NCBI GenBank assembly: GCA_964364265.1
Contig: CAYILA010000006.1
Coordinates: 1 to 61,563 of the forward strand
DNA from: an uncultured Candidatus Saccharibacteria bacterium
GTDB taxonomy: Bacteria; Patescibacteriota; UBA1384; XYA2-FULL-43-10; 1-14-0-10-43-13
DNA length: 61,563 bases
Reading direction: 5' to 3'
Below, piece by piece: positions 1,100-57,149 of the stretch (position 1 is the first letter of the stretch; every line of letters begins with the position of its first letter). The position numbers were made by a program, and so were the translations under genes. The notes under the pieces were generated by a model, which was not told the origin of the DNA, searched no databases, and saw only the letters and a list, made by a program, of their open reading frames with translations.

Positions 1100-2344
1100 T
1101 CACCCCCTTTCCCCGTGCCAGAACTGCTTGAGGTAGAGCAGAAAGCCTCTCCTCTCAGAGACGGTCAGACTGCACAGCAACTCCAGAACAAGACTGAAAA
1201 GACGTCGTCGATAGATGCACTCTCGCGGAACTGCGGCAAACTCGCTTCCCGCAACGGAAAACGCATGATGATAGCAGACTCCGCCGCAGAGATACCGGAA
1301 AGGGCACTCCGAACAACCCAATGTCCGGCTTTCCGATCCCTGCTTCAAGGAAACCCTGAATCGCTCAACTGTTGAGTCAACCTCACTTTCGGGAGTTTGC
1401 TCAATGGATCCGAGCGAAAAGAGCATGTTTCCTGTGAAACGAGGGCAGCGGTAGAGCTTGCCTTCCGCAGAGACGGACAGATACGATACGCCTGCGTTGC
1501 AATGCGACCTCTTCCTTTTCTTAAGGACGATTGCGGTAACCGGCTCGGTGACATTCGTGACGTCGAAGTAATCGCCTTGAGCAATAGCCGCATGGTAATC
1601 TCTGAAAAGCTTCCCAATGGATTGCATGAAGCAGTCGAATCCCGCATTGCTCAGATTGTAGTCGAGCGCGTAGGTGATGCGTCTAATGCCGAGCGTTAGA
1701 ATATGCGCCACCGCCTTATTGATCGCTGTGTTTTTGTCAGCGATGGTAATTCGGGCTTGTATGGGTACGCTACCCAGTAGCATCTCTGCTGCTCTGACAG
1801 TATCGGCATACGATCCCTCTCCTCCGGGATACACCCTGTAGGTGTTATGCGCTGCCGGATCGCCATCGATGCTCAACATCACATGGAACGCGTTTTGTCT
1901 CATGAGGTCGACGTGGTTTTGCTCCAAACGAGTTCCGTTAGTCGTGAGTAGATACCGAACCGAGACGCCGTTAGGAACCTTGGCGTTGGCGTAAGCAACA
2001 ACCTCCTCGATCAGATCGAACGCGAGGAGCGGCTCGCCGCCGAAGAAGCCAATCGTTGCGCTCTTTCCGCCGTGCTTGGCAACGGAATTGATGACCAGGT
2101 CGACGCTCCGGTGTGCCGTTTCAGAGCTCATTACGGCCCCAGGGTTGTCGTACCTTCCCTGGCTGGCATAGCAATAACTGCAAGCCAAGTTGCAGTTGTT
2201 GATAAGGTTAAGTGCCAGACTTCTAAGATATGTCCCGCGACTTGAGTCGAAGTCGCTCCCGTTGGAGGGAGCTTTGGCGGTTTTGCCGCCATTTTCGATC
2301 TCGTAGATAGCGAGGGGGAGGGTAAGGGGACGACATTCTATTTT
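1100..2344 (-). CDS. radical SAM enzyme with C-terminal SPASM domain (peptide-maturase / anSME-like)
   Basis: The ORF track (1100..2188) starts at a TTG that lies inside the CX3CX2C motif. The frame is open upstream to 2344 (..LINNCNLACSYCY). Motifs: GGEPLL, TTNG, SIDG. SPASM cysteines C-x12-G-x4-C (CNAGVSYLSVSAEGKLYRC) and CX2CX5CX3C (CSECPFRYLCGGVC). The nearest ATG (2348-2346) is out of frame by one A in an A5 run. Confidence 0.8.
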   Translation of the reverse strand, partial: KIECRPLTLPLAIYEIENGGKTAKAPSNGSDFDSSRGTYLRSLALNLINNCNLACSYCYASQGRYDNPGAVMSSETAHRSVDLVINSVAKHGGKSATIGFFGGEPLLAFDLIEEVVAYANAKVPNGVSVRYLLTTNGTRLEQNHVDLMRQNAFHVMLSIDGDPAAHNTYRVYPGGEGSYADTVRAAEMLLGSVPIQARITIADKNTAINKAVAHILTLGIRRITYALDYNLSNAGFDCFMQSIGKLFRDYHAAIAQGDYFDVTNVTEPVTAIVLKKRKRSHCNAGVSYLSVSAEGKLYRCPRFTGNMLFSLGSIEQTPESEVDSTVERFRVSLKQGSESRTLGCSECPFRYLCGGVCYHHAFSVAGSEFAAVPRECIYRRRLFSLVLELLCSLTVSERRGFLLYLKQFWHGERG

Positions 2345-2347
2345 TCA

Positions 2348-2635
2348 TTGCCTTTATTAAAACAAAAGCCGGTTGACGAACACGAAGGCGAGGGGGCGGT
2401 TATCCAGATGACCAATACAAAGGGCGGAAGCGAGGGAACACCAGGGACGGAAGGGGGAACTAAAGAAATGAAGAACGAAGGAACTAAAGGACAGGAAGAA
2501 CCGAAGGCGCAGGAGATTGTACCTAGTGTCCAGGATTCAGGTAAAACAAATGTCATCCCGACCAAGGCGGAGGGATCTCTCGACTCGAAAGATTCACTCG
2601 CTCGAGATGACGGTAAAAAGGAAGAGAAGAAATAG
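2348..2635 (+). CDS. low-complexity Gly/Glu/Lys/Thr-rich ORF (doubtful)
   Basis: ORF track only. TTG start, no SD, purine-rich low-complexity sequence. It may instead be the non-coding leader of the divergent rSAM gene. Confidence 0.2.
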   Translation: MPLLKQKPVDEHEGEGAVIQMTNTKGGSEGTPGTEGGTKEMKNEGTKGQEEPKAQEIVPSVQDSGKTNVIPTKAEGSLDSKDSLARDDGKKEEKK

Positions 2636-2695
2636 AACTATCGGATATTGACATCGATTAATTGGTTGGTGGTATGATTTGGATACGGAGAAAAA

Positions 2696-3028
2696 ATGAG
2701 TAAAATTACACTAGATGAACTGGCGGCAATGATCGCCAAACAATTTAACGCGATAGATAAGCGATTCGATATTATTGAGAGTGATATCACGGGAATCAAG
2801 GGTGATGTAAGAGATCTTAAGACCGGTCAAAAACGGTTGGAGGATTCGATTTGGGAAATGAGATCCGAATTAAATGACATTAAAAAGCGAATAGAACGCA
2901 TTGAAAAAAGAACTCTGGAAAGCTTGCCCCCGACCCGATCGGGGGACGATGATGTTATGGTCTCGGAAATCGTAGCTCTTAAAAAGCGTGTACTAATTTT
3001 AGAGACTAAGCTTAACAAATCGCCTTAG
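2696..3028 (+). CDS. small coiled-coil protein, function unknown
   Basis: ORF track. GGAG 7 nt upstream of the ATG. TTGACA(2648-2653)-N19-TGgTATGAT upstream. Heptad-like charged sequence. Confidence 0.6.
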   Translation: MSKITLDELAAMIAKQFNAIDKRFDIIESDITGIKGDVRDLKTGQKRLEDSIWEMRSELNDIKKRIERIEKRTLESLPPTRSGDDDVMVSEIVALKKRVLILETKLNKSP

Positions 3029-3062
3029 AAGATTTCATTCGCTATCTTCTATCTTTTATCTT

Positions 3063-3845
3063 CTATTCTTTGTTCCAGTCTTGGGCTGAATTTTTAGAGG
3101 TTACGAGACGAAGTTTCTCGTCGGAGCTTTCAATTAATTGCGGGGTCTTTGCCACGACGGCGCTACCGCAGATTAGTCCGGTTGGAGATTTAGTAAAAAT
3201 GCGCAGTGAACGACCGCGGAAGATTGAGTTAAAAATCTTTTCCTGCGGTTTTTTTGATCCGAAAAACGAACTGATCCGGTTTACAAATTGGGATTCGGTT
3301 GGGTTGGCGGAGGAGATAGTAACGTCGAGATAATCGTCACCGATTTTTTTTATTTTTGGGTCAAACATCGAGACCGTCAAAGTAGTTGCCCGTGTTTGGA
3401 TGATGAAATCCTTAAATTCCAAAGTTATCTCGGTTGAGCCGTTGATAGCCAGCGAGGTTTTGGTTAAGAAAGCGTAGCCGCTGGCGGTTTGGCCGAGTCG
3501 GATTTCGGAGATTTTACGAAATCGCAGGGACTCGCAGGCCTCCCGCCAATGGTTGACACCGATTAACCGATATAATTCCGGCGTCGCTTCAAGCGGGATG
3601 ACGCCAAATGCTTCTTTCCGGCCGACAAGCCGACCGGCAACCGCATTGGCGATTTCATCTCCTCCGACTGCCACAAAAGTGCTGTATTGTTTGGACAAAC
3701 CGATACTGACCAGCTCATTGGCATTTTGAGCGGCAGTCGGATAAGTATATTCGCCGGCAATCCCAAGGGAACCTAGATAATCTTTTATTTCTTGAACTTG
3801 GGAACGCTTTTTGCATTTTTTTATATCAAAAATGTAGTAGTACAT
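3063..3845 (-). CDS. diacylglycerol/lipid kinase family protein (YegS/BmrU-like)
   Basis: ORF track. Degenerate GGDG-type motif (VAVGGDEIANAV) and overall DAGK catalytic-domain-like layout. Recall-based. Confidence 0.5.
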   Translation of the reverse strand: MYYYIFDIKKCKKRSQVQEIKDYLGSLGIAGEYTYPTAAQNANELVSIGLSKQYSTFVAVGGDEIANAVAGRLVGRKEAFGVIPLEATPELYRLIGVNHWREACESLRFRKISEIRLGQTASGYAFLTKTSLAINGSTEITLEFKDFIIQTRATTLTVSMFDPKIKKIGDDYLDVTISSANPTESQFVNRISSFFGSKKPQEKIFNSIFRGRSLRIFTKSPTGLICGSAVVAKTPQLIESSDEKLRLVTSKNSAQDWNKE

Positions 3846-3883
3846 TAAATAAACACGGTTAATCGGTGGGCGTTAATCGGTGA

Positions 3884-4084
3884 CGAAGCCCGACCCAAAG
3901 GGTCCCCTTCGGGGTTTCGGTTCCGCCAGCTGGCGAATGTTTAGGGGTTACGGCCGTCCGCCTTGGCTTGTGCTGGGCGAGACAGGTTACCGCTTGCCCT
4001 TTGACGATACTCTTCGAATCCCGAGCCACATCCCTCAGAGTCGAGGGACGGGTCTCGTTACCGTACTCCGAATACCGTGTCCCG
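3884..4084. repeat. GC-rich structured repeat element E1
   Basis: Contains hairpins gaccc-aaa-gggtc, cccc-ttcg-gggg and cgccagctggcg. The 49-nt core 4004-4052 is the exact reverse complement of 7836-7884. Confidence 0.8.
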
Positions 4085-4086
4085 TA

Positions 4087-4557
4087 TTATTTTCTAAAAA
4101 ATCCGAGGGGATCGCGTTCTTTTGGTTTTTCCTCTCCGCCAGCTGGCGGATTGTCCTTGTCGTCTTCTTCTTTTTGATCCTTCTCATCGGCCGTTTCCTC
4201 TTTTTTATCCTCGGTCGTTTCGCCGACCTTGGTTTCGCTTGGCATCAAGCTCTTGCCGACAAAGGTAGCGCCCTGTTGGATAATCAAGCTCTTGGCATTA
4301 ATATCGCCGACAACATTACCGGTTGGATGAATTTCCAGTTTTTCGGTCGCCTCAATAATACCGTGAACTTCACCGGCGATTTCAATCGTTTTGGCGGTAA
4401 CCGGTCCTTTGACTTTGGCGGTCTCGCCAATATTGATATGTTCGTCGCTCCTCACCTCCCCTTCAACATTGCCGTTAACCTGAATTGAGCCCTTGTTTTT
4501 CAGGTTGCCCTTCAAGGTTACATTCAAACCGATGATGGTATCGATCGTGTTCTCCAT
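4087..4557 (-). CDS. bactofilin (polymer-forming cytoskeletal protein) with acidic C-terminal tail
   Basis: ORF track. Repetitive beta-helix pattern (VTLKGNLKNKGSIQVNGNVEGEV...IAGEVHGIIEA...VVGDINAKSLIIQQGATFVG) typical of the bactofilin/DUF583 family. Confidence 0.85.
   Translation of the reverse strand: MENTIDTIIGLNVTLKGNLKNKGSIQVNGNVEGEVRSDEHINIGETAKVKGPVTAKTIEIAGEVHGIIEATEKLEIHPTGNVVGDINAKSLIIQQGATFVGKSLMPSETKVGETTEDKKEETADEKDQKEEDDKDNPPAGGEEKPKERDPLGFFRK
4135..4150. repeat. 16-bp perfect palindrome TCCGCCAGCTGGCGGA (encodes PPAGG) inside the bactofilin tail
   Basis: Read directly. Same core at 35584-35599. Variants at 36990-37005, 56888-56903 and 3922-3936. Confidence 0.9.
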
Positions 4558-4707
4558 ATTTCTCCTCTAGTTAATATTTTCGATAATCATACAAAGTATG
4601 AAAAAAGAAGGATTGATTTCCCCTTCTTTTGGTTTCATTAATATTTGTATCATAGCATAATTCCACATTGCAAGGGGTGGGGATAACCAGCCGAAGGCTG
4701 GTAATGT

Positions 4708-4818
4708 TAAATTTCTAATTTCTTATTTCTAAATAATATCAAAAATTAAATCATCAAATAAAAAGACTAGAAACAACTTTCGGTCTTATTAGGATTTAGG
4801 GTTTAGATATTAGGATTT
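4708..4818. repeat. family A palindromic element (AT-rich long hairpin), intergenic copy upstream of uvrA
   Basis: Left arm aaatttctaatttcttatttctaaataatatcaaaaatt, right arm attaggatttagggtttagatattaggattt. Shares these words with 8277-8387, 8614-8725 and 26558-26660. Confidence 0.7.
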
Positions 4819-4915
4819 GTTCTGGATGTGATGGCTCCACTCCTTGATTGGACTTGACAAAGGTGGTAAAATGGTGCGGCTTTGGACCTTATTCAACAAA
4901 TCAAAAAGTCTCAAT

Positions 4916-7822
4916 ATGGATAATATAAAAATAAGCGGCGCCAGAGAACATAATTTAAAGAACATTTCCCTCGAAATTCCAAGGGATAAGTTGGTGGTCA
5001 TCACCGGTTTGTCCGGCTCGGGAAAGTCCTCCCTGGCTTTCGACACCATTTATGCCGAGGGGCAGCGCCGCTATGTCGAATCCCTGTCCTCTTACGCCAG
5101 ACAGTTTTTGGGTCTAATGGAAAAACCGGATGTCGATTACATCGAGGGTTTATCGCCGGCGATATCGATCGACCAAAAATCAGCTTCCCGCAATCCCCGC
5201 TCGACGGTTGGCACCGTGACCGAAATCTATGATTATATGAGAGTCCTCTTCGCCAGAGCGGGGGAAGCCCACTGTCCTAATTGCCGCAAAAAAGTAACCC
5301 GCCAAACTGTCGGCCAGATTGTCGACCAGGTAATTTATTTTGCCAAGAAAACGGAACGGATTGCGGTTCTGGCGCCGGAAGTGGAGGACAAAAAGGGCGG
5401 GCATCAGGACATTTTCCAAAAAATTGCCAAAATGGGTTACTCCCGGGTTCGGCTTGACGGTGTAATTATGGAAATCGAAGAGGCAAGCGCCAAAGAATTG
5501 GATAAGAACAAAAATCACAACATTGAAATTGTGGTTGACCGTCTGATTTTGGAAAAAGAGGGGATCGATGAATCAACTAAAAAACGGCTCTACGATTCAA
5601 TTGAAAAAGCGCTTCTTGCCGGCAAGGGCCGGGTTTTAATCTATAACCTGCCTACCGGTCAGGCAGGTTTCGAAACGGAAAAAACTGAAAACTATTCGGA
5701 ACTGTTTGCCTGTCCGGACTGCAAAATTTCCCTGCCGGAGATTTTGCCCCGTTCCTTTTCTTTCAATTCGCCGCACGGCGCTTGTCCGGTCTGTCAGGGT
5801 TTAGGCGTCCGGCAGGAGATTGAGCCAAGGTTGGTATTACCCAATGCCAGATTGACTATTAACGAGGGGGCGATAAGACCGTGGTCCCGAAGTTCGGCTA
5901 ATCTGGGTTGGTATTTTTCAATCCTCTCGGCGGCTGCCAAAAAACATCAGATCGATATGGATACGCCGATCTCCCAGTTATCGAAAGAGAATCTGAAAAT
6001 AATTCTCTATGGCAGCGGCGAAGAGATTTTAAATGTCCGGGGATATGAAACAAAATATGAGGGCATTATTCCAAATTTGCTCCGCCGATATAAAGAAACG
6101 CAATCGGAGTATATAAAGAAAGAAATCGAAAGATATATGGTCATCCGCCCCTGTCCCTCTTGCGGCGGAAAAAGATTGAAAAAAGAGGTATTGGGAGTTT
6201 TAATTGCCGACAAGAATATTGTCGAGGTTTCCGATTTGACAATTGAAAAATGTTTAGAATTTTTTATCAAACTTCCGAAAAAACTAAACTCGGAACAAAA
6301 CGCTATCGCTGTTCAACTGATTAAAGAAATTAAAGAACGGCTTAAATTTTTAATCGATGTCGGACTTTCTTACCTTACCTTAAATAGAAATGCCGCCACT
6401 TTGGCCGGCGGGGAAGCCCAGCGGATCCGCCTGGCAACCCAGATCGGCTCCGGCCTGATGGGCGTTTTATATATTTTAGATGAGCCCTCAATCGGTCTTC
6501 ATCAGAGAGATAACGCCAGATTAATTGAGACGATCAAAAATCTGCGCGACCTTGGCAACTCGATCATCGTGGTTGAACATGATCAGGAAATGATAATGAA
6601 TTCCGACTGGCTGATTGATATCGGACCGGGCGCCGGCGAACACGGCGGGGAAGTTATCTGTCAGGGAAAACCGGAGGATATCTTGAATTGCGAGGATTCA
6701 ATCACCGCCAAATATCTAAAAGGCGTCGAGGAAATCCCGATTCCGAAATTCAGACGGCCGGGAAACGGCAGCGTTCTTGAAATCGTCGGCGCGACTGAAA
6801 ATAATTTGAAGGGCATTTCGGTAAAAATTCCGCTTAAGACTTTTTCTTGTGTTACCGGTGTTTCCGGATCGGGAAAATCGACTTTAATCAACGATATTTT
6901 GGCCAAGGCCCTTTCAAAAGAGTTCCACCGGGCCAAGACGGAGCCGGGCGAGCACAAAGAAATATTGGGGACAAAAAATCTTGATAAAGTGATCGACATC
7001 GACCAATCGCCGATCGGCAAGTCGCCCCGATCGAATTCGGCAACATATACCGGCATATTTACAACAATCAGAGAACTTTTCGCCCAAACATCGGAGTCTA
7101 AGATGCGCGGATATAAAGCGGGTCGGTTTTCATTTAATGTGAAGGGCGGTCGTTGTGAGAAATGTCGCGGCGAAGGCGTTTTGAAAATCGAGATGCACTT
7201 TTTGCCTGATGTTTATATTACCTGCGAGGAGTGCAAGGGCAAAAGATACAACAAAGAAGCCCTTGAAATCCGATATAAAGGAAAGAATATTGCCGATATT
7301 TTGGAGATGACGGTTGAGGAAGCGGCGTCATTGTTCCAAAATATCCCTCCGATTGTCGAAAAGATGCGGGTTTTGGTTGATGTCGGCTTGGGCTATATTC
7401 GTCTCGGTCAGCCGGCCACGACACTCTCCGGCGGCGAAGCCCAAAGAATAAAACTGGCGACCGAACTTTCGCACCGCAGCACCGGTAAAACTTTATATAT
7501 TTTAGACGAACCGACGACCGGACTTCATTTTGAAGACATCCGCCGGCTTTTGGGGGTTCTGGCGGCGCTGGTGGATAAGGGCAATACCGTTTTGGTAATC
7601 GAGCACAATCTTGATGTGATCAAATCGGCTGATTACCTTATCGATCTGGGACCGGACGGTGGCGATAAGGGGGGAGAGGTACTGGCTACCGGCACGCCGG
7701 AGGAGGTAGCTAAAGTTAAAAAGTCATATACGGGACAGTATTTAAATAAATTACTCAATGGTTCAATTGTTAAATTGTCCAATCCCAAAAACGGTAAACG
7801 GTATACGGCCTGCCTGCGGTAG
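4916..7822 (+). CDS. uvrA: excinuclease ABC subunit A
   Basis: ORF track 4844..7822. Likely start [17 protein letters not shown] at 4916. Two ABC ATPase modules ([24 protein letters not shown]), LSGGEAQR signatures and zinc-finger Cys pairs. Confidence 0.95.
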
Positions 7823-7891
7823 GCAGGTAACGAAGCCCGTCCCTCGACTCTGAGGGATGTGGCTCGGGATTCGAAGAGTATCGTGAGGCGA
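7813..7891. repeat. repeat element E2 (hairpin plus 49-nt core), flanked by a 17/18-nt direct repeat
   Basis: Core 7836-7884 is the reverse complement of 4004-4052 (49/49). Hairpin cctgcct-gcggt-aggcagg at 7809-7827 contains the uvrA stop codon. Flanks are taaacggtatacggcctg (7795-7812) and taaacggtaacggcctg (7892-7908). Confidence 0.8.
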
Positions 7892-7935
7892 TAAACGGTA
7901 ACGGCCTGATACCGGAAAACCACGACAGATTGGTG

Positions 7936-7964
7936 TTGCGATATGACTTAATTTAGGTTATAAT
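7936..7964 (+). promoter_or_regulatory. sigma70-type promoter of the RNase P RNA gene
   Basis: TTGCGA(7936-7941)-N17-TATAAT(7959-7964). The predicted start is about 7970, at the first base pairs of helix P1. Confidence 0.6.
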
Positions 7965-8014
7965 AGATCAGCTTCAAAGTAATCTAGATGACTACTGCCG
8001 TGCTTCGCACTTTT

Positions 8015-8152
8015 CCTACGAAAGTACAAATTCATCGAAAATACGAAACTACGAATAGATTTCATTAAATAATTCGTAATTTAGAACTTTAGTAATTTCG
8101 TTTGATTCGTCCGCCTCGGCTCGTGCCGACGCGAGACGGGTAATTTGGTAGG
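8015..8152. repeat. family B palindromic element inserted at the apex of RNase P helix P3
   Basis: Runs cctacgaaagtac...taatttggtagg and carries the 30-nt module ccgcctcggctcgtgccgacgcgagacggg (8111-8140). It is flanked by ccgtgcttcgcac / gtgcgcagcgcgg, which can form the P3 base stem. Confidence 0.8.
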
Positions 8153-8263
8153 TAGAGTGCGCAGCGCGGTGGAGGAAAGTCCGAGCACTATAGAGCAGGG
8201 CGCTTGTGAAAACAAGAGGGCCGTAAGGTCCTAGAACAGCGCAACAGAAAATAAACCGCCAAA

Positions 8264-8400
8264 CCGTGCGAAGCACGGAAATCCGAAATCCTAATTTCTA
8301 AATCCGAAACAATATCAAAATTCAAGTATTTAAATGTTTGAAAATTGGAATTTGTTTAGGATTTAGGGTTTCGATATTAGAATTTCCGCGCTCCGCGCGG
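8264..8400. repeat. family A palindromic element at the RNase P P12 position
   Basis: Lies between AAACCGCC and GGTAAGGGTGAAA. Layout: ccgtgc-gaa-gcacgg, then the long AT-rich hairpin ggaaatccgaaatcc...gatattagaatttcc, then ccgcgc-tc-... gcgcgg. Confidence 0.8.
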
Positions 8401-8600
8401 CGGTAAGGGTGAAATCGTGTCCCGATGTTACAATCGGGATCCCAATATCGCAAGATCGTCGGGAAGGTAAGAGCTCACGCGTTCGTATGGCGACATACGT
8501 CTGTGGCAAGCCTCGTTTAGTGCAAGTGAAGTGGACTAGATATATCAACTTTTGCTCGAAGGGTATATTTGGTCTTCACGCGTAGATAGATTGTCATCGG

Positions 8601-8739
8601 CCGTGCACAGCACGGAAATCCAAAATCCTAATTTCTAAATCCGAAATAATATCAAAATTCAAATAATAAAATATTTGAAAAATAGAATTTGTTTAGGGTT
8701 TAGGATTTCGATATTAGAATTTCCGCGCTATGCGCGGCC
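8601..8739. repeat. family A palindromic element between the P2 3' strand and the P4 3' strand of RNase P RNA
   Basis: Same three-part architecture as 8264-8400 (ccgtgc-aca-gcacgg, long hairpin, ccgcgc-tat-gcgcgg). It sits right before CCTACAGAACTCGGC. Confidence 0.8.
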
Positions 8740-8840
8740 TACAGAACTCGGCTTATTGATTACTTTGAAGCTGTTTGACCAAATAAATATTTTGTGTTAG
8801 ATTGAGAGCAATCTTTCATAAATTGCAAGAAGGAGTATCG

Positions 8841-9404
8841 ATAGCAAATAATAAGTTTTATCGGGTTAATGAGCGAATTCGATTTTCGCCCATTGTTGTT
8901 ATTGACGAAGAAGGTGAAAATTTAGGCGAAATGTCGACTTTTGAGGCTAGAAAATTGGCCGAGAATGCCGGTCTTGACCTTGTCGAGATTAATCCGACCA
9001 ACCGTCCGCCGATTTGCAAGATCATGGATTACGGAAAATTCAAATACGACCAGGCCAAGAAAGATAAAGAATCCCGTTCCAAACAGAAGGAAACGGAGTT
9101 GAAGGAAATCCGATTGACTCACAAGATTTCCGACCACGACATTGACTACAAGGCGAAACAGGCCAGAGAATTCTTTAACCACGGCAACAAGGTTAAGGTC
9201 TCGATGCGGCTTCGAGGACGGGAAAACGCCTTCGTCAACCAAGCATTCGCCGTTTTTGAAAAATTTGCCGAGAAGTCGGGTATCTATTATGAAAGTCGGC
9301 CGGTCAAAAGCGGAAATTCAATAATTGGAAATTTCGGGAAGTTAAGAGAGAAAGAAAAATCAGATGAAGTTAAAATCCCACAAAGCGACAGTCAAGAGAA
9401 TTAA
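8841..9404 (+). CDS. infC: translation initiation factor IF-3 (probable non-AUG ATA start)
   Basis: ORF track 8802..9404 (TTG). GAAGGAG (8829-8835) lies 5 nt before the in-frame ATA 8841. Typical IF-3 sequence (INERIR-like RVNERIRFSPIVVIDEEGENLG, MDYGKFKY). Confidence 0.85.
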   Translation: MANNKFYRVNERIRFSPIVVIDEEGENLGEMSTFEARKLAENAGLDLVEINPTNRPPICKIMDYGKFKYDQAKKDKESRSKQKETELKEIRLTHKISDHDIDYKAKQAREFFNHGNKVKVSMRLRGRENAFVNQAFAVFEKFAEKSGIYYESRPVKSGNSIIGNFGKLREKEKSDEVKIPQSDSQEN

Positions 9405-9546
9405 AAGAACCGGTTCGGGAAAGTTGGTTCACGTTAAAGCGGCCAAAAGCCATCTTTTGACACACAAAAGCGATCCGACCAAAGTTTTGATTGAGGTCAA
9501 GAAACCTGACAGAGCGGGTGTTAAAAGAATGGCACCATACCTATAA
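9364..9546 (+). CDS. rpmI: 50S ribosomal protein L35
   Basis: ORF track: MKLKSHKATVKRIKRTGSGKL. Overlaps the infC 3' end by 41 nt. Confidence 0.85.
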   Translation: MKLKSHKATVKRIKRTGSGKLVHVKAAKSHLLTHKSDPTKVLIEVKKPDRAGVKRMAPYL

Positions 9547-9556
9547 ATAACCAAAT

Positions 9557-9649
9557 CCTTACGAAACTACGGATTGATCGAAAATACGAAACTACTAATC
9601 AATAAATATTCGTACTCTAGTAATTTCGTTCGATTCGTAATTTAGTAGG
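9557..9649. repeat. family B palindromic element (rpmI-rplT spacer)
   Basis: Runs ccttacgaaactacgg...cgaaaatacgaaactac...gtaatttcgtt...taatttagtagg. Same TACGAAA/TTTCGTA word hairpin as 8015-8152 and 57013-57149. Confidence 0.7.
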
Positions 9650-9664
9650 AAGTTAGGATATTCA

Positions 9665-10006
9665 ATGAGAGTAAAGCGCGGAACGGTCAGACATGCCAAG
9701 CACAAGAAAATCATCAAATTAGCCAAGGGCTATGTCGGACGCAAAAAATCGGTATTCAAATTAGCCAAGCAGGCGGTCTATAAAGCCGGACAGCACGCTT
9801 TTCGCGACCGACGCAATAAAAAGCGAACCTTCCGGGCACTCTGGATTATCAAGATTAATGCCGGTGTCAGACAATTCGGCATGAGCTACTCGACATTTAT
9901 GAAGAAATTGACTGATGCCAAAATTGAATTGGATCGAAAGATGCTTTCAGACCTGGCCGAAAATGAGCCGAAGGCCTTTGAAGCAGTCGTCGACAGGGTC
10001 AAGTAA
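9665..10006 (+). CDS. rplT: 50S ribosomal protein L20
   Basis: ORF track: [23 protein letters not shown]. Confidence 0.95.
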
Positions 10007-17436: not shown

Positions 17437-19380
17437 ATGATTGCAAACATTATCCCCCACAAAAGAACCGGCCGTGAAACCGAGATTTATTCTTATCTCG
17501 TTCCGAATGATTTTCAGGACGATGTCAAAATCGGCTCAATCGCCGCCGTCTCTTTCGGGCGCAAGAAGATTATGGGAGTTGTTGAATCAATCCAGACCGA
17601 GAACCCCGGTGATATTAAACTAAAGGAATTATCGGAATTGACAGGTATTGAAATCCCGGCCCATTACATTGAAATTACCAGATGGGTAGCCGATTATTAC
17701 CTTTGTTCCTTAGGCGAAGCAATCGGACTTTTTATGCCGCCGGAGATGCGGCGTCCGAGGGTGCAAGATATAAGATATACGATACAAGATAAAAGAATTA
17801 AACAACTCAACGACGAACAGCAGAAGGTATTTGAAATATTAAAAGAAAGATTGAAGAAACCCGAAAAGCCGGCCTTGATCCATGGCGTGACATCTTCGGG
17901 AAAGACCGAAATTTATTTGAAATTGGCGGCTGAAACACTAAATTCCGGCAAGCAGGTAGTCGTTTTAGTGCCGGAAATTATTTTAACTCTCCAGATTGTA
18001 GAAAGATTCGAGGAGACTTTTGGAGACAATGTAGCTTTGTATCATTCCGATTTATCAAAATCGGAAAAGTTAAATGCCTATCTTGATTTTCAAACCGGAG
18101 TTAAAAAAATAATTGTCGGTCCCCGCTCGGCATTGACCGTCCCTTCTGAAAATATCGGCTTGGTCATTATTGATGAAGAAGGGGAGAGCTCATACAAACA
18201 GGAGAAAAATCCCAAGTACCACGCTGTAGAATTGGCGGAACAAATCGCCAAAAACCGGGCTTTGCTTATTTTAGGAAGCGCCACGCCAACCCTGGATTCA
18301 TATTACAAGACCAAAACCGGTCAATATGAATTATTCGAATTAAAGAATCGTTATAAAAATCCGATGCCCAAAGTAGAGATTGTCGATTTACGGGAAGAAA
18401 TTAAAAACCGGAATTTTTCCTCAATCTCCGAAAAATTAAGGGCGGCGATTGAAGAAACCTTGAAAGCCAAGAAACAAACATTTTTGTTTCTCAATCGCCG
18501 CGGCGCTTCGACTTTCGTTTCCTGCCGCGACTGCGGGAAGGTGATTCTTTGCCCGAACTGTTCGGTGCCCCTGATTTATCATATTTTGGATAAGCGGAAT
18601 TTCTTAAACTGCCATCATTGCGATTATGAAACTTATGTTCCCTCGCAGTGTCCGGTCTGCAAAGGATTTCGAATAAAATATTTCGGCGCCGGGGTTGAAA
18701 AAATTGAAATAGAGATAAAAAAGTTGTTTCCGGAAGCTCGAATCAGAAGAATTGATTCGGGGACGATGAATTCAAAAAAAGATTACCAGAATCTTTACGA
18801 TGATCTGAAAAACCACAAGATAGACATCTTAATCGGTACCCAAATAATCGCCAAGGGACTGGATATTCCCAATGTCGATCTAGTCGGGATCGTCTCAGCC
18901 GATGTCGGACTTCACCTCCCGTATTACAAAGCGGCTGAGAGAACTTTCCAATTAATTACCCAAGTTATCGGCCGGGGCGGCAGGGGCGACAACCATGGCA
19001 AAGCTATTTTGCAGACCTATTGGCCGGAATCGCTTTCGATCCTTTCAGCTGGCGCCCAAAACTTCGAATCATTTTATAATCGGGAGATAGGGGAACGCAA
19101 AAAATATGACCTGCCGCCTTTCGTCCACTTGGTTCGTGTCATTGCCGAAGAAAAAGAGGCCGAAAAAGCCAAAGAAGCGGTAGGAAAAGTGGCTGTAGAG
19201 TGTCGAAAGAGGGGAATCGAATATCTTGGTCCGGCCAAAGCGTTTTTCTCAAGAATCAGGGGAAACTACCGATATCATCTAATCATCAAAGTTAAAAAAT
19301 TGCCGGATAAAAAATTGGAGGAAATATTTTCAACGAATCCCTATCTGTTTTGGGATGTCGATCCGGAGAACCTGCTTTAA
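17437..19380 (+). CDS. priA: primosomal protein N' (replication restart helicase PriA)
   Basis: ORF track 17434.. (TTG), with ATG at 17437. Motifs: GVTSSGKTE, DEEGESSYKQ, Cys-rich zinc region CRDCGKVILCPNC...CHHCDY...CPVC. Confidence 0.9.
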   Translation: MIANIIPHKRTGRETEIYSYLVPNDFQDDVKIGSIAAVSFGRKKIMGVVESIQTENPGDIKLKELSELTGIEIPAHYIEITRWVADYYLCSLGEAIGLFMPPEMRRPRVQDIRYTIQDKRIKQLNDEQQKVFEILKERLKKPEKPALIHGVTSSGKTEIYLKLAAETLNSGKQVVVLVPEIILTLQIVERFEETFGDNVALYHSDLSKSEKLNAYLDFQTGVKKIIVGPRSALTVPSENIGLVIIDEEGESSYKQEKNPKYHAVELAEQIAKNRALLILGSATPTLDSYYKTKTGQYELFELKNRYKNPMPKVEIVDLREEIKNRNFSSISEKLRAAIEETLKAKKQTFLFLNRRGASTFVSCRDCGKVILCPNCSVPLIYHILDKRNFLNCHHCDYETYVPSQCPVCKGFRIKYFGAGVEKIEIEIKKLFPEARIRRIDSGTMNSKKDYQNLYDDLKNHKIDILIGTQIIAKGLDIPNVDLVGIVSADVGLHLPYYKAAERTFQLITQVIGRGGRGDNHGKAILQTYWPESLSILSAGAQNFESFYNREIGERKKYDLPPFVHLVRVIAEEKEAEKAKEAVGKVAVECRKRGIEYLGPAKAFFSRIRGNYRYHLIIKVKKLPDKKLEEIFSTNPYLFWDVDPENLL

Positions 19381-24598: not shown

Positions 24599-25309
24599 AT
24601 GAATAAAATTAGATTTCACATTCTGACACTGTTTCCGGAGATGTTTGAAAGCGTTTTTGCCTCAAGTATCCTTTCCCGTGCCCAGAAAAAGGGAATTATG
24701 GAGATAAAATATTATAATTTACGCGATTTTGCCGCCGACAAGCACAAAACTGTAGACGACACGCCGTATGGCGGCGGTCCGGGGATGGTACTGAAAATTG
24801 ATGTTATGGACAAAGCCATAACATCAATAAAATCCGAAATCCGAAATCCGAAATCCGAAAAATCAAAAGTCATATTGATGACGCCGCAGGGGAAGAGGTT
24901 TGATCAGAAAAAAGCGGCCGAATTATCAAATTTGGAGGATATCATCTTAATCTGTGGCCACTACGAAGGATTTGACGAAAGAATCAGAGAGCACTTGGTT
25001 GATGAGGAAATTTCGATTGGTGATTTTGTACTTTCGGGTGGAGAAATTCCGGCTATGGCCGTCGTGGACGCCGTAGCCCGGCTCGTACCGGGAGTGCTGG
25101 GCAAGGATGAGTCCTCGAATGAGGAGAGTTTTTCATTGACCGATGATGACGGCAAGATTTTACTGGAATACCCAATCTATACCCGTCCGGTCGAGTACAA
25201 GGGTTGGAAAGTGCCGGAGGTGCTCCAAAACGGAAATCATGCCGAGATTAAAAAATGGCGTCTAGAAGAAGCCAAGAATAGAACTAAAGATAAACGAACT
25301 GACAGGTAA
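24599..25309 (+). CDS. trmD: tRNA (guanine37-N1)-methyltransferase
   Basis: ORF track: YGGGPGMVLK, ICGHYEGFDERI, SIGDFVLSGGE. Confidence 0.9.
   Translation: MNKIRFHILTLFPEMFESVFASSILSRAQKKGIMEIKYYNLRDFAADKHKTVDDTPYGGGPGMVLKIDVMDKAITSIKSEIRNPKSEKSKVILMTPQGKRFDQKKAAELSNLEDIILICGHYEGFDERIREHLVDEEISIGDFVLSGGEIPAMAVVDAVARLVPGVLGKDESSNEESFSLTDDDGKILLEYPIYTRPVEYKGWKVPEVLQNGNHAEIKKWRLEEAKNRTKDKRTDR
24831..24858. repeat. (AATCCGA)x4 heptamer repeat, in frame inside trmD
   Basis: Read directly. Encodes part of IKSEIRNPKSEKSK in a variable TrmD loop. It is the same word as the left arm of family A elements. Confidence 0.9.
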
Positions 25310-25327: not shown

Positions 25328-27418
25328 ATGAGCAATTTTGTACTGAAATCAAAATTTGAACCCAAGGGGGATCAGCCGGAAGCGATCGAGAGATTATCCG
25401 CCAATCTTGAGAGTGGAGTTAAGGATCAGGTCCTTTGGGGGGTAACCGGATCGGGCAAGACCTTCACCATGGCTAATGTGGTTCAAAATATCCAAAAACC
25501 GACTTTGGTAATCGCCCACAACAAAACTCTGGCCGCCCAGTTGGCCGATGAATTCCGCCAGTATTTTCCAAACAACGCGGTCCATTATTTCGTTTCCTAC
25601 TACGATTATTATCAACCGGAGGCCTATATCGCCTCGACCGATACATACATTGAGAAGGACTCCTCAATCAACGATGAGATTGACCGCCTTCGCCACGCCG
25701 CCACCCACGCTCTTCTTACCAGAAAAGATGTTTTAATCGTCGCCTCGGTTTCCTGTATTTATGGCATCGGTTCGCCGGAGTTCTACCAGTCAGAAAATGT
25801 AATATTAAAAGTTGGCGAAGATATTAAACGCGATCAATTGTTAAAATCTCTGACCAATCAACAATATCAACGAAACGATTTGGAGTTGCGGCGCGGGACT
25901 TTTCGGCTGAAGGGTGACACTCTGGAGATTTTACCGGCTTACGCCGAAAATTATTTTAGAATTGAATTTTTTGGTGACAACATCGAAAAGATTACAGAAA
26001 TGGCCTGGCCGGACAACAATGTCTTGAAAAATTATCAAGAGATTGAGATCTATCCGGCAAAACATTTTATTACCCCGGAGCCAATCCTAAAACTTGCAAT
26101 ATCGGAGATCAGAAAAGATCTCGAGATTAGACTAAAAGAATTGAAATCAGAAAATAAGCTTTTAGAATACCAACGCTTGGAACAGCGAACCAATTACGAT
26201 TTGGAGATAATGGAGCAGACCGGTACCTGCTCCGGAATTGAGAACTATTCAAGATATTTTGACCAAAGATCTCCGGGCGAACCGCCGACCACACTTTTGG
26301 ACTACTTTCCCCATTCGACAAGCTCAGGGCAGGCTGATTTCCTGTTGTTCATCGACGAATCCCACATGACTGTGCCCCAGATAAGGGGAATGCATGCCGG
26401 TGACCATTCGCGGAAGAACTCTTTAATCGAAAACGGTTTTCGCCTTCCATCGGCTTTTGATAACCGGCCGCTCCAGTACGAAGAGTTCCAAGATAAGATC
26501 GGTCGAACAATATTTGTGTCGGCGACACCGGGGGAGTACGAGCTCCAAAAGAGCTCAAGAAATCCGAAATCCGAAATCCGAAATCCTAAAGAAATTAAAA
26601 ATTCGAATTTTGAAAATTCAAAAATTGTTTCGGATTTAGATATTAGAGATTCGAATTTCCACGCCAGCGTGGTAAAGCAGTTCATCCGGCCAACCGGATT
26701 GATTGATCCGGAAATCGAGGTCCGAAAAACCGCTGGCCAGATTAAAGATTTGATTACCGAAATAGACAGCCGAATATTGAAGAAACAACGAGTTTTAGTA
26801 ACAACCCTGACCAAACGGATGGCTGAGGAACTAACCGAATATTTAGCAGAGAGAAAAATCAAAGTTGCCTACATTCACTCCGATGTCGAAACGCTGGAGC
26901 GAAGCGAGATACTTCATTCTTTGCGGTTGGGAGAATATGATGTGCTGGTCGGCATAAACTTGCTTCGGGAAGGTTTGGATCTGCCGGAAGTATCGATGGT
27001 AGCGATACTGGATGCCGACAAGGAAGGGTTTTTGCGGAGCAAGACATCTTTAGTTCAGACAATCGGGCGGGCGGCACGCCACTCGGAGGGCAAGGTTATA
27101 ATGTATGCCGACCGGATAACCGATTCGATGAAAGCAGCCATATCTGAAACCGAAAATCGGCGCAAACTGCAGGAACGCTATAACACGGAACACGGCATCA
27201 TTCCAACAACAATTCAAAAATCGGTAAAGCCAAAGGAGATAAAGGAAGAAGAGGAGCTGAAAAAGATCAATAAAGAATTCAAAGTTCTACCAAAGATCGA
27301 GAAAAAACGGGTGATTAGAGATTTGGAACAGTTGATGGAAGAGGCGGCCAAAAATTTGGAATTCGAACGGGCGGCCGAACTCCGAGATCAGATCATCAAG
27401 TTGGAATCGCTGATTTGA
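25328..27418 (+). CDS. uvrB: excinuclease ABC subunit B (with in-frame repeat insertion)
   Basis: ORF track: GVTGSGKTFTMA, FVSYYDYYQPEAY, DESH, C-terminal UVR motif (FERAAELRDQI). Confidence 0.95.
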   Translation: MSNFVLKSKFEPKGDQPEAIERLSANLESGVKDQVLWGVTGSGKTFTMANVVQNIQKPTLVIAHNKTLAAQLADEFRQYFPNNAVHYFVSYYDYYQPEAYIASTDTYIEKDSSINDEIDRLRHAATHALLTRKDVLIVASVSCIYGIGSPEFYQSENVILKVGEDIKRDQLLKSLTNQQYQRNDLELRRGTFRLKGDTLEILPAYAENYFRIEFFGDNIEKITEMAWPDNNVLKNYQEIEIYPAKHFITPEPILKLAISEIRKDLEIRLKELKSENKLLEYQRLEQRTNYDLEIMEQTGTCSGIENYSRYFDQRSPGEPPTTLLDYFPHSTSSGQADFLLFIDESHMTVPQIRGMHAGDHSRKNSLIENGFRLPSAFDNRPLQYEEFQDKIGRTIFVSATPGEYELQKSSRNPKSEIRNPKEIKNSNFENSKIVSDLDIRDSNFHASVVKQFIRPTGLIDPEIEVRKTAGQIKDLITEIDSRILKKQRVLVTTLTKRMAEELTEYLAERKIKVAYIHSDVETLERSEILHSLRLGEYDVLVGINLLREGLDLPEVSMVAILDADKEGFLRSKTSLVQTIGRAARHSEGKVIMYADRITDSMKAAISETENRRKLQERYNTEHGIIPTTIQKSVKPKEIKEEEELKKINKEFKVLPKIEKKRVIRDLEQLMEEAAKNLEFERAAELRDQIIKLESLI
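26557..26674. repeat. family A palindromic element inserted in frame in uvrB
   Basis: Runs agaaatccgaaatccgaaatccgaaatcc...gtttcggatttagatattagagattcgaatttcc, then ccacgc-ca-gcgtgg. Translated as SRNPKSEIRNPKEIKNSNFENSKIVSDLDIRDSNFHAS, between YELQKS and VVKQFIRPTGL. Confidence 0.85.
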
Positions 27419-27489: not shown

Positions 27490-28002
27490 ATGAAACAAAG
27501 CGTCGGAATATTTATTGTTATCGTTGTTGCGATCTTGGCGATTGGCGGCGGGCTGATCTATTACAACAAAAGTAAAAATTCGGCCGATTCAAACCGAGTT
27601 GCCGACCAAAACGGAGATGTTAAGGGAGCGAGCGATAGTGGTGAAAGCGCTGATTATAAGGTTAAACTAGCTAAATTTTTAAGCCAGAAGGGGATGGTCA
27701 TGTACGGCGCTTATTGGTGCGTTCACTGCAAGGGACAAAAGGAACTGTTCGGCGACGCCTTCCAATATGTTGACTATGTCGAGTGTGATGCCGCAGGCGA
27801 AAATGGAAATCCGGAGGAATGCAAAGCAAAAGGGGTAACCGGATATCCGACCTGGATATATCAGGGCAAGGAGTATGAAGGGCTTCTATCGCTTTCAAAA
27901 TTAGCCGGTATTGTCGGATTCTCCGATAGCGGTGCTTCCAATGCCGATTCATCCACAAATAGCACCGATTCGACAACGAGCACTGGGGATAACCAGCCGT
28001 AA
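27490..28002 (+). CDS. membrane-anchored thioredoxin-fold protein (CxxC; VKOR-partner-like Trx domain)
   Basis: ORF track. N-terminal TM helix. YGAYWCVHCKGQKELFG resembles the Trx-like domain fused to bacterial VKOR homologues (recall). Confidence 0.6.
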   Translation: MKQSVGIFIVIVVAILAIGGGLIYYNKSKNSADSNRVADQNGDVKGASDSGESADYKVKLAKFLSQKGMVMYGAYWCVHCKGQKELFGDAFQYVDYVECDAAGENGNPEECKAKGVTGYPTWIYQGKEYEGLLSLSKLAGIVGFSDSGASNADSSTNSTDSTTSTGDNQP

Positions 28003-28011
28003 ACTACCGAT

Positions 28012-28039
28012 AAATCCTAAATCCTAAATCCTAAATCCT
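28012..28039. repeat. (AAATCCT)x4 heptamer repeat
   Basis: Read directly. Begins 10 nt after the stop codon of the Trx-fold gene. Confidence 0.9.
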
Positions 28040-28131
28040 AAACTGACATTAAATAAATATTGTCCAAGACGGGATATTTAACAAGGTGATTCTGGGAGAT
28101 CATTGAATAGCAAGATTATGTCTCCGTACGC

Positions 28132-57012: not shown

Positions 57013-57149
57013 CCTACGAAAGTACGAATATAACCTGCCTACCGGCAGGCAGGCGAAAATACTAAAATACCAATCAATTCGTAATTTCGTACTTTAGAAA
57101 AATTCGTCCGCCTCGGCTCGTGCCGACGCGAGACGGGTAATTTTGTAGG
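57013..57149. repeat. family B palindromic element (rpoB-rpoC spacer) with nested modules
   Basis: Runs cctacgaaagtacgaa...ttcgtactttag...ttttgtagg. Encloses cctgcct-accggc-aggcagg (57034-57053) and the 30-nt module 57108-57137, which is identical to 8111-8140. Confidence 0.8.

Follow-up and report, generated by a model that had tools for sequence, protein, structure and literature searches.

Palindromic repeats of two families at three peripheral helices of an oversized RNase P RNA gene from a groundwater Patescibacteria contig

On contig CAYILA010000006.1, a Patescibacteria (Candidate Phyla Radiation, CPR) contig from Hainich groundwater whose 61,563 nucleotides are termed here the window, the gene for the RNA component of RNase P (rnpB) is 805 nt long; three insertions, each of about 138 nt, bring it to roughly twice the normal size, as an original prediction made from the sequence alone had proposed, its relatives measuring 331-483 nt. 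The gene is read here as a working CPR RNase P RNA gene that appears to have been hit three times by non-coding, palindromic repeats belonging to two families, and whose product most likely keeps the resulting hairpins as an RNA of about 800 nt; a probability of roughly 0.6 is attached to this reading. The gene and its inserts are the following:

7969..8773, + strand: the 805-nt rnpB, coding for a class A RNase P RNA, identified by a match to Rfam model RF00010 and by homology to compact rnpB genes
8015..8152, + strand: insert 1, at the P3 apex, a palindromic element of family 1 (CCTACGAAAGTAC...GGGTAATTTGGTAGG) with a nested GC-rich module at 8109-8139
8264..8400, + strand: insert 2, family-2 element of 137 nt at the P12 apex, with GC clamps at 8264-8278 and 8386-8400
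8601..8737, + strand: insert 3, family-2 element of 137 nt at the P19 site, between the P2 and P4 3' strands

The identification, which the prediction had left to a covariance-model alignment of the flanking core, rests both on such an alignment and on homologous compact relatives. In a permissive scan of positions 7700-9000, RF00010 (a model of 367 positions) aligns the core at 8154-8770 with 90.5 bits and E = 7.4e-28, covering model positions 1-367. This score lies below the curated gathering threshold of 100 bits, and a scan of the whole window against Rfam at gathering thresholds gave zero matches. The score falls short because the insert in P3 blocks alignment of the true P1-P3: insert 1 is not bridged by the model, which mis-uses 8154-8172 as a stand-in P1 strand and loses the true 5' end. 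Insert 2 is aligned as a large insertion in the P12 loop, and insert 3 as an insertion in J2/4, placed after P15-17 and before the P4 3' strand. (Many weak matches of plant and animal microRNA-precursor families over inserts 2 and 3 were rejected as merely reflecting long, AU-rich hairpins.)

Around the inserts the core of the ribozyme is intact. Its principal elements, given in order along the sequence, are:

7969..7984, + strand: P1 5' strand (CAGCTTCAAAGTAATC), in perfect 16-bp pairing with its exact reverse complement at 8758-8773
7987..7992, + strand: P2 5' strand (GAUGAC), pairing with GUCAUC at 8593-8598 in the minimum-free-energy fold and aligned with P2 of relatives
7995..8004, + strand: 5' strand of the P3 basal stem (CUGCCGUGCU), pairing with AGCGCGGUGG at 8163-8172; half-clamps at 7998-8010 and 8157-8169 belong to this stem region
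8173-8187, + strand: conserved region GAGGAAAGUCCGAGC, a landmark motif
8177..8184, + strand: P4 5' strand (AAG-U-CCGA), pairing with 8748-8754
8421..8465, + strand: P13 loop natively expanded by 45 nt in two hairpins, not a dispersed repeat
8741..8756, + strand: J2/4 plus P4 3' strand (ACAGAACUCGGCUUAU), conserved core with invariant alignment columns

Both the perfect P1 and the canonical order of the four type A landmark motifs (8173-8187, 8241-8260, 8402-8414 and 8741-8756) are as the prediction described them. The consensus structure computed by RNAalifold from 11 sequences comprises 78 pairs in P3, P4, P5, P7-P14 (the class A helices P12, P13 and P14 all being included) and P15-17, with compensatory changes at 34 of these pairs; the window rnpB forms 77 of the 78, as compared with 73-76 in its relatives, and also keeps every column that is invariant in the clade. 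At the 10-bp base of P3, alignment columns 27-31 pair with columns 200-204 and covary among the relatives. In P4 seven pairs are formed around a bulged U8180, one of them a compensatory A-U: at A8184-U8748 (column pair 216/823) seven sequences have GC, three have GU and only the window has AU, both sides having changed relative to the G-C or G-U of the relatives. None of the inserts touches the five conserved regions, the P4 pseudoknot or any core helix. Every structural criterion that the sequence allows to be tested marks the gene as a class A RNase P RNA, and it falls short only of the curated score cut-off.

Relatives were found by scanning metagenomes with a clade-specific 18-mer (TCTGTGGCAAGCCTCGTT), which located 20 loci: 11 of these hold a real rnpB (one lacking its 5' end) and nine lack RNase P similarity. 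The RF00010 matches of ten relatives measure 331, 340, 346, 347, 359, 369, 378, 412, 448 and 483 nt and score 122.7-178.3 bits, compact examples being locus L086 (346 nt, 174.8 bits) and locus L098 (331 nt, 178.3 bits); the insert-free alleles that the prediction had suggested seeking in related genomes are found among them. Relatives of 331-378 nt have short P3, P12 and P19 hairpins exactly where the window has its inserts. The insertion points defined by these alignments are the P3 apex, the P12 apex and the site of the optional P19 hairpin, which agrees with the earlier placement at P3, P12 and P19/J2-4. The P3 hairpin spans 178 nt in the window (7995-8172) as against about 16-25 nt in the relatives, and their P19 is a short hairpin, in L086 CCCCUAUGCAAAUAGGGG, flanked by the P2 3' strand (UGUCAUC) and by ACAGAAC. 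P1 typically measures 14-16 bp in the clade, so that the 16-bp P1 of the window is no longer than that of insert-free relatives, and P18 is absent from the whole clade.

Removal of the three blocks leaves 391 nt, as had been calculated; the arithmetic stands, but this 'core' still holds the 45-nt P13 expansion and about 22 nt of P3 clamp, and subtraction of both gives an ancestral core of about 324-346 nt. The P13 expansion, which the prediction did not list, has the same architecture with a different sequence in locus L090 and a shorter version in locus L109; its stems co-vary, and it is read as a native structural expansion because it has no dispersed copies.

All three inserts are copies of repeats, as predicted, and the dispersed copies that had been pointed out (at 4709-4818, 9557-9649 and 57013-57149, and inside uvrB) were recovered; insert 1, however, belongs to a different, modular family from inserts 2 and 3. 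The family-1 element begins with CCTACGAAAGTAC and ends with GTAATTTGGTAGG, its terminal inverted repeats being CCTACGAAA... and ...TTTGGTAGG. Besides insert 1 there are five further, near-identical copies, all of them intergenic (in the rpmI-rplT, rpoB-rpoC, rpsG-fusA, tuf-rpsJ and rplB-rpsS spacers), and four of the copies share a nested module:

9557..9649, + strand: family-1 element in the rpmI-rplT spacer, its end 16 nt before the rplT start codon
57013..57149, + strand: family-1 element in the rpoB-rpoC spacer, its end 25 nt before the rpoC start codon
15343-15443, 19048-19187 and 23011-23134 of L114, a sister assembly: family-1 elements in the rpsG-fusA, tuf-rpsJ and rplB-rpsS spacers
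8109-8139 and 57106-57136 of the window, and about 19146-19176 and about 23090-23120 of L114: copies of the 31-nt module

The 31-nt, GC-rich module (GTCCGCCTCGGCTCGTGCCGACGCGAGACGG) is 100% identical in these four copies while the surrounding element varies, and a second optional module (ATAACCTGCCTACCGGCAGGCAGG) occurs in two other copies, so that the family has a mosaic organisation. Its stems are invariant and show no covariation within family 1, which is uninformative, either way, on function at the RNA level. The intergenic copies end 3-25 nt upstream of a start codon and are followed by TTAGGAA or TTAGGTAA, a placement that suggests either that they act in the processing, stability or translation of mRNA or else that insertion there is strongly preferred. 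(A run of Ns at 14520-14620 of L114, in the rpsL-rpsG spacer, has duplicated flanks and is a scaffold gap, probably arising from another repeat.)

The two family-2 inserts are 90% identical, with 14 differences over 137 nt; one of these is a double compensatory change (G7-C131 to A7-U131), and most of the others keep pairing. The family-2 ends have the form CCGYGC-NNN-GCRCGG, and each is able to form a small hairpin alone; in the predicted fold, the two ends of an element instead pair together and close a long, AU-rich stem, while at the base of insert 3 G8599 and G8600 pair with C8738 and C8739. The arms consist of degenerate GAAATCC heptamers, seen as period-7 arrays at 8278-8309 and 8616-8647 (76% matches) that form the arms of the palindromic element, and the terminal inverted repeats (CCGTGCGAAGCACGGAAATCC against the reverse complement of CCGCGCGGAGCGCGGAAATTC) match at 17 of 21 positions by hand count. 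Four exact copies of the clamp CCGYGCNNNGCRCGG lie in the window, all of them within inserts 2 and 3, chance alone predicting 0.37 for the window. A scan of viral contigs for the clamp plus arm gave a single match, in GC-rich coding DNA, which was dismissed as chance. The prediction had all three inserts bounded by similar GC clamps; this is so for inserts 2 and 3, but insert 1 has only half-clamps (7998-8010 and 8157-8169), which lie outside the repeat proper, resemble the family-2 ends and are not found around the intergenic family-1 copies. Nested insertion, gene conversion among the three sites and a clamp-only carrier element are possible origins of these half-clamps.

Outside rnpB, the AU-rich body of family 2 recurs in uvrB and upstream of uvrA, and its heptamers also form pure arrays:

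26555..26665, + strand: family-2 element in frame in uvrB (25328-27418), adding 37 residues (SRNPKSEIRNPKEIKNSNFENSKIVSDLDIRDSNFHAS) after residue 409
4709..4818, + strand: degenerate family-2 copy upstream of uvrA
24830-24860: perfect (AAATCCG) x 4.4 heptamer array inside trmD (24599-25309)
28011-28042: (TAAATCC) x 4.6 array, just past the open reading frame (ORF) that ends at 28002

The 37 codons of the uvrB insert keep the reading frame and fall between two halves that align to solved UvrB structures; the trmD product is the tRNA (m1G37) methyltransferase. Over about 71 kb of genome, the copies without coding capacity number at least six for family 1 and three to four copies or fragments for family 2. 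A repeat insert was also suspected in uvrA (982 aa as against about 941-953 aa) and was rejected, the excess being due instead to an upstream start codon and a 7-residue indel. As a separate observation on UvrA, the second-best match (P0002, at positions 1874-6520 of locus L085, from JGI sample 3300005201) is 1548 aa long, about 600 aa over the normal length, and matches the Pfam families UvrA_inter and UvrA_DNA-bind twice each; a fusion, a duplication or an intein might account for this.

In the minimum-free-energy fold of the 805-nt RNA (-298 kcal/mol, z = -12.8 relative to shuffled sequences), P1 (16 bp), P2 (6 bp) and the P3 base are recovered and the inserts form separate hairpins that continue P3, P12 and P19; the inserts do not lower the predicted pair probabilities of the core helices. 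Hairpins of similar build are found in other lineages. Loci L087, L088 and L101, which are three independent assemblies of one lineage, have a 147-nt P19 hairpin with GC hairpin ends (CCCGATGCGAAGCATCGGG ... CCCGCCGCTTCGCGGCGGG; positions 7220-7366 of L087), and locus L095 has a 121-nt P12 hairpin (TCGCGCTATGCGCGA ... TCACGCGTAGCGTGA; positions 5497-5617). Both have AU-rich, roughly heptamer-periodic arms and neither is similar in sequence to the inserts of the window. Counting the window, large GC-clamped hairpins at P12 or P19 are present in 3 of 12 distinct rnpB genes that could be examined there. Further copies of the L087 and L095 inserts were not found in their loci of about 10 kb, which is too little sequence to judge. 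Similarly built hairpin inserts are thus present independently in two related lineages, one at P12 and one at P19.

These features point to a mechanism in which each insert would fold on itself at the tip of a peripheral helix, so that an existing helix is merely lengthened. Selection would remove insertions elsewhere in the gene, and only those at variable helix tips would survive, which would explain the presence of similarly built inserts at the same helices in related lineages. The GC clamp might act as an insulator during folding, so that the AU-rich arms stay out of the core, and the mature ribozyme would most likely retain its hairpins and work as an RNA of about 800 nt. Cyanobacterial RNase P RNAs with P12 repeats remain active. 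Retention is favoured because of this activity and because extended helices have been reported in CPR RNAs (PMC8172020). Among class A RNAs generally, P3, P12, P15-17 and P19 are unalignable, variable helices (PMC4264200).

Several points weigh against this picture of a retained, mobile repeat: (i) no transposase domain was found among the roughly 45 ORFs of the window; (ii) inspection revealed no target-site duplications flanking inserts 1-3 or the intergenic copies, although the copies may be too old to show them or the mechanism may leave none; (iii) the exact GC clamp occurs only inside rnpB, which is unexplained by one element giving rise to many copies; (iv) insert 3, in J2/4, adjoins the catalytic P4, where its bulk might matter more than at P3 or P12; (v) long AU-rich duplexes are plausible substrates for RNase III, and that the mature RNA keeps them is something we infer; and (vi) a second rnpB or a protein-only RNase P may be encoded beyond the roughly 71 kb that were searched.

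The fifth of these points leads to the most serious alternative, namely that RNase III excises the inserts after transcription, much as it does rRNA intervening sequences, leaving an RNA of up to four pieces joined through P1, P2, P4 and the GC clamps of P3, P12 and P19. This is possible, though less likely than retention. The inserts have the form that it calls for: at each site a stem-loop of about 137 nt, long and with few interruptions, stands in place of a helix tip, as in rRNA intervening sequences; the stems resemble RNase III substrates; and the GC-rich clamps would stay at the base and, with a P1 of 16 bp and a P3 base of 10 bp, hold the pieces together. The family-1 spacer positions just before start codons are likewise compatible with RNA-processing sites, and insertions in CPR rRNA genes are reportedly absent from the mature rRNA. 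On the other hand, the stems contain bulges and mismatches, and P1 is no longer than the 14-16 bp of insert-free relatives, so that there is no sign of compensatory strengthening. A domain search of the window's ORFs, which cover only part of the genome, turned up no RNase III. To our knowledge, no naturally fragmented bacterial RNase P RNA has been described; a tentative possibility is that this organism's RNase P RNA is a non-covalent assembly of up to four pieces and the first such bacterial case. The family-1 hairpins between ribosomal-protein and RNA polymerase cistrons would, in that event, be processing sites used genome-wide.

Far less probable is that the gene is a decaying pseudogene serving as a landing pad for repeats, with a compact rnpB or a protein-only RNase P elsewhere doing the work. 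Three insertions in a single essential gene are indeed unusual, and the score lies below the Rfam cut-off. The prediction had itself raised a second, compact rnpB as the sign of such decay; RF00010 finds no other match, either in the 61.5-kb window (E up to 0.001) or in the 9.4 kb of contig next to it (E up to 0.0001), a search limited to about 71 kb of genome in total. CPR genomes are small and a single rnpB is expected in them. A decaying gene is also hard to reconcile with 77 of 78 consensus pairs formed, with the preservation of all clade-invariant columns, with a compensatory double change in P4 and with inserts that avoid every conserved region; the intact core, the P4 change and the want of a second RF00010 match in the sequence searched argue strongly against pseudogene status.

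It is equally improbable that the blocks grew in place, by lineage-specific slippage of heptamers within native helices followed by duplication or gene conversion of insert 2 into insert 3: the arms are indeed degenerate heptamer arrays (GAAATCC), the exact clamp is confined to rnpB, there is a resemblance between the left clamp and L087's native P12 hairpin (GUCGUGC-UAU-GCACGAC) and neither target-site duplications nor a transposase were found, but the family-2 body also lies in uvrB and upstream of uvrA, the P3 element has five near-identical spacer copies and a nested module shared by four copies at 100% identity, and the closest relatives have short helices at these sites.

In two replicate assemblies of groundwater from Hainich well H51 (0.1 µm fraction), the contigs that code for the window's L20 protein match the window, one at 100% and the other at 99.9%, over 1301 nt that span the whole of rnpB; because these two assemblies agree over that length, an assembly artefact is unlikely. 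The gene lies within the order uvrA (4844-7822), rnpB, infC (8823-9404), rpmI (9364-9546) and rplT (9665-10006). The ORFs of infC and rpmI overlap by 41 nt (9364-9404), the infC stop being at 9404 and the rpmI start at 9364. The order uvrA-rnpB-infC-rpmI-rplT is common to two relatives, L086 and L087/L088, and is not kept around five UvrA relatives (P0008, P0009, P0010, P0007 and P0012; DNA for three of the five). Locus L088 also encodes, at 1525-1881, about 2 kb upstream of uvrA, a member of PF05635 ('23S rRNA intervening sequence protein' family), a gene that locus L087, nearly identical in other respects, does not have. Identity to the closest UvrA homologues is 75-78%, and these, where named, come from a Patescibacteria group bacterium; those at about 70% identity include Candidatus Berkelbacteria. 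A peptide-pattern scan of genome contigs for the initiation factor IF3 gave 600 unspecific matches from many phyla, the best 55% identical, and no close relative. Upstream of the gene lies one further feature:

7936..7964, + strand: promoter-like site TTGCGA-17 nt-TATAAT, whose last base lies 5 nt upstream of the start of P1

Ten of its 12 hexamer positions match, in an AT-rich region where three such matches were found against 3.0 expected, so that the site as the rnpB promoter is only suggestive. A search within rnpB found no terminator-like site, which is weak evidence.

Taken as a functional gene, this rnpB amounts to a natural map of tolerance, in which about 410 extra nucleotides are accommodated at P3, P12 and P19 and two of these sites have been hit independently in related lineages. 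It also illustrates how very small CPR genomes can host active-looking, modular palindromic repeats in a ribozyme gene, in uvrB and in the spacers of core operons. For annotation, an rnpB below the cut-off means that a standard pipeline would report the genome as lacking an RNase P RNA and that completeness checks relying on this gene would fail, for which there is a precedent (PMC8172020). Were the hairpins excised, the gene would instead provide a new case of a fragmented essential ribozyme.

Compared with known systems, the RNA shares with the class A RNAs of RF00010 the conserved regions, the P4 pseudoknot and the helices P1-P3, P5-P14 and P15-17 in canonical order, and differs from them in its length (805 nt against a model of 367 positions), in its score below the cut-off and in belonging to a clade without P18. 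The intervening sequences of bacterial 23S and 16S rRNA are stem-loop extensions of 100-200 nt that are removed by RNase III. There, as here, an extended stem-loop replaces the helix tip of an essential structured RNA; in the window, however, the host is a ribozyme of about 350 nt rather than rRNA, and excision with fragmentation is hypothetical. [quoted passage not shown] The repeats described here resemble them as modular mosaics with optional nested modules, and differ in that neither a transposase nor target-site duplications were found in the window; no sequence relationship has been established. Rickettsia palindromic elements (RPE) are dispersed repeats of 100-150 bp that occur both between genes and in frame within them (PMC1779305). 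The in-frame uvrB insert of 37 codons is like these by analogy only; the host phylum is unrelated and sequence similarity is not expected, and the elements in the window also lie inside a catalytic RNA gene.

The closest parallels come from RNase P RNA itself. Vioque is said to have described, in 1997 (Nucleic Acids Res 25:3471), STRR (short tandemly repeated repetitive) sequences in P12 of cyanobacterial rnpB. Those genes likewise carry genome-wide repeats of 7-nt period in P12, but the window has three sites, including P3 and P19/J2-4, belongs to a different phylum with different sequences, and has as its units GC-clamped palindromic elements of about 137 nt rather than simple tandem arrays; its heptamers also differ from the cyanobacterial STRR types. 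In CPR bacteria, Lui, Nielsen and Arkin (2021) reported rnpB genes with 'large extensions of helices' that escape detection at Rfam thresholds (PMC8172020); the extension that they show is in P15, not in P3, P12 or P19, and the extensions are not attributed to dispersed repeats. The original prediction, which knew of no description either of such tolerance or of such excision for this type of repeat, has to be softened in view of the cyanobacterial P12 repeats and the CPR helix extensions that precede it (PMC8172020). Neither precedent has dispersed palindromic repeats at three sites together. The literature searches turned up no RNase P RNA gene with dispersed palindromic elements at three sites, and none with such an element at the P19/J2-4 site. 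With the P12 repeats of cyanobacteria and the extended helices of other CPR RNAs as its precedents, the rnpB of the window is a striking new variant rather than a new kind of RNase P RNA gene.

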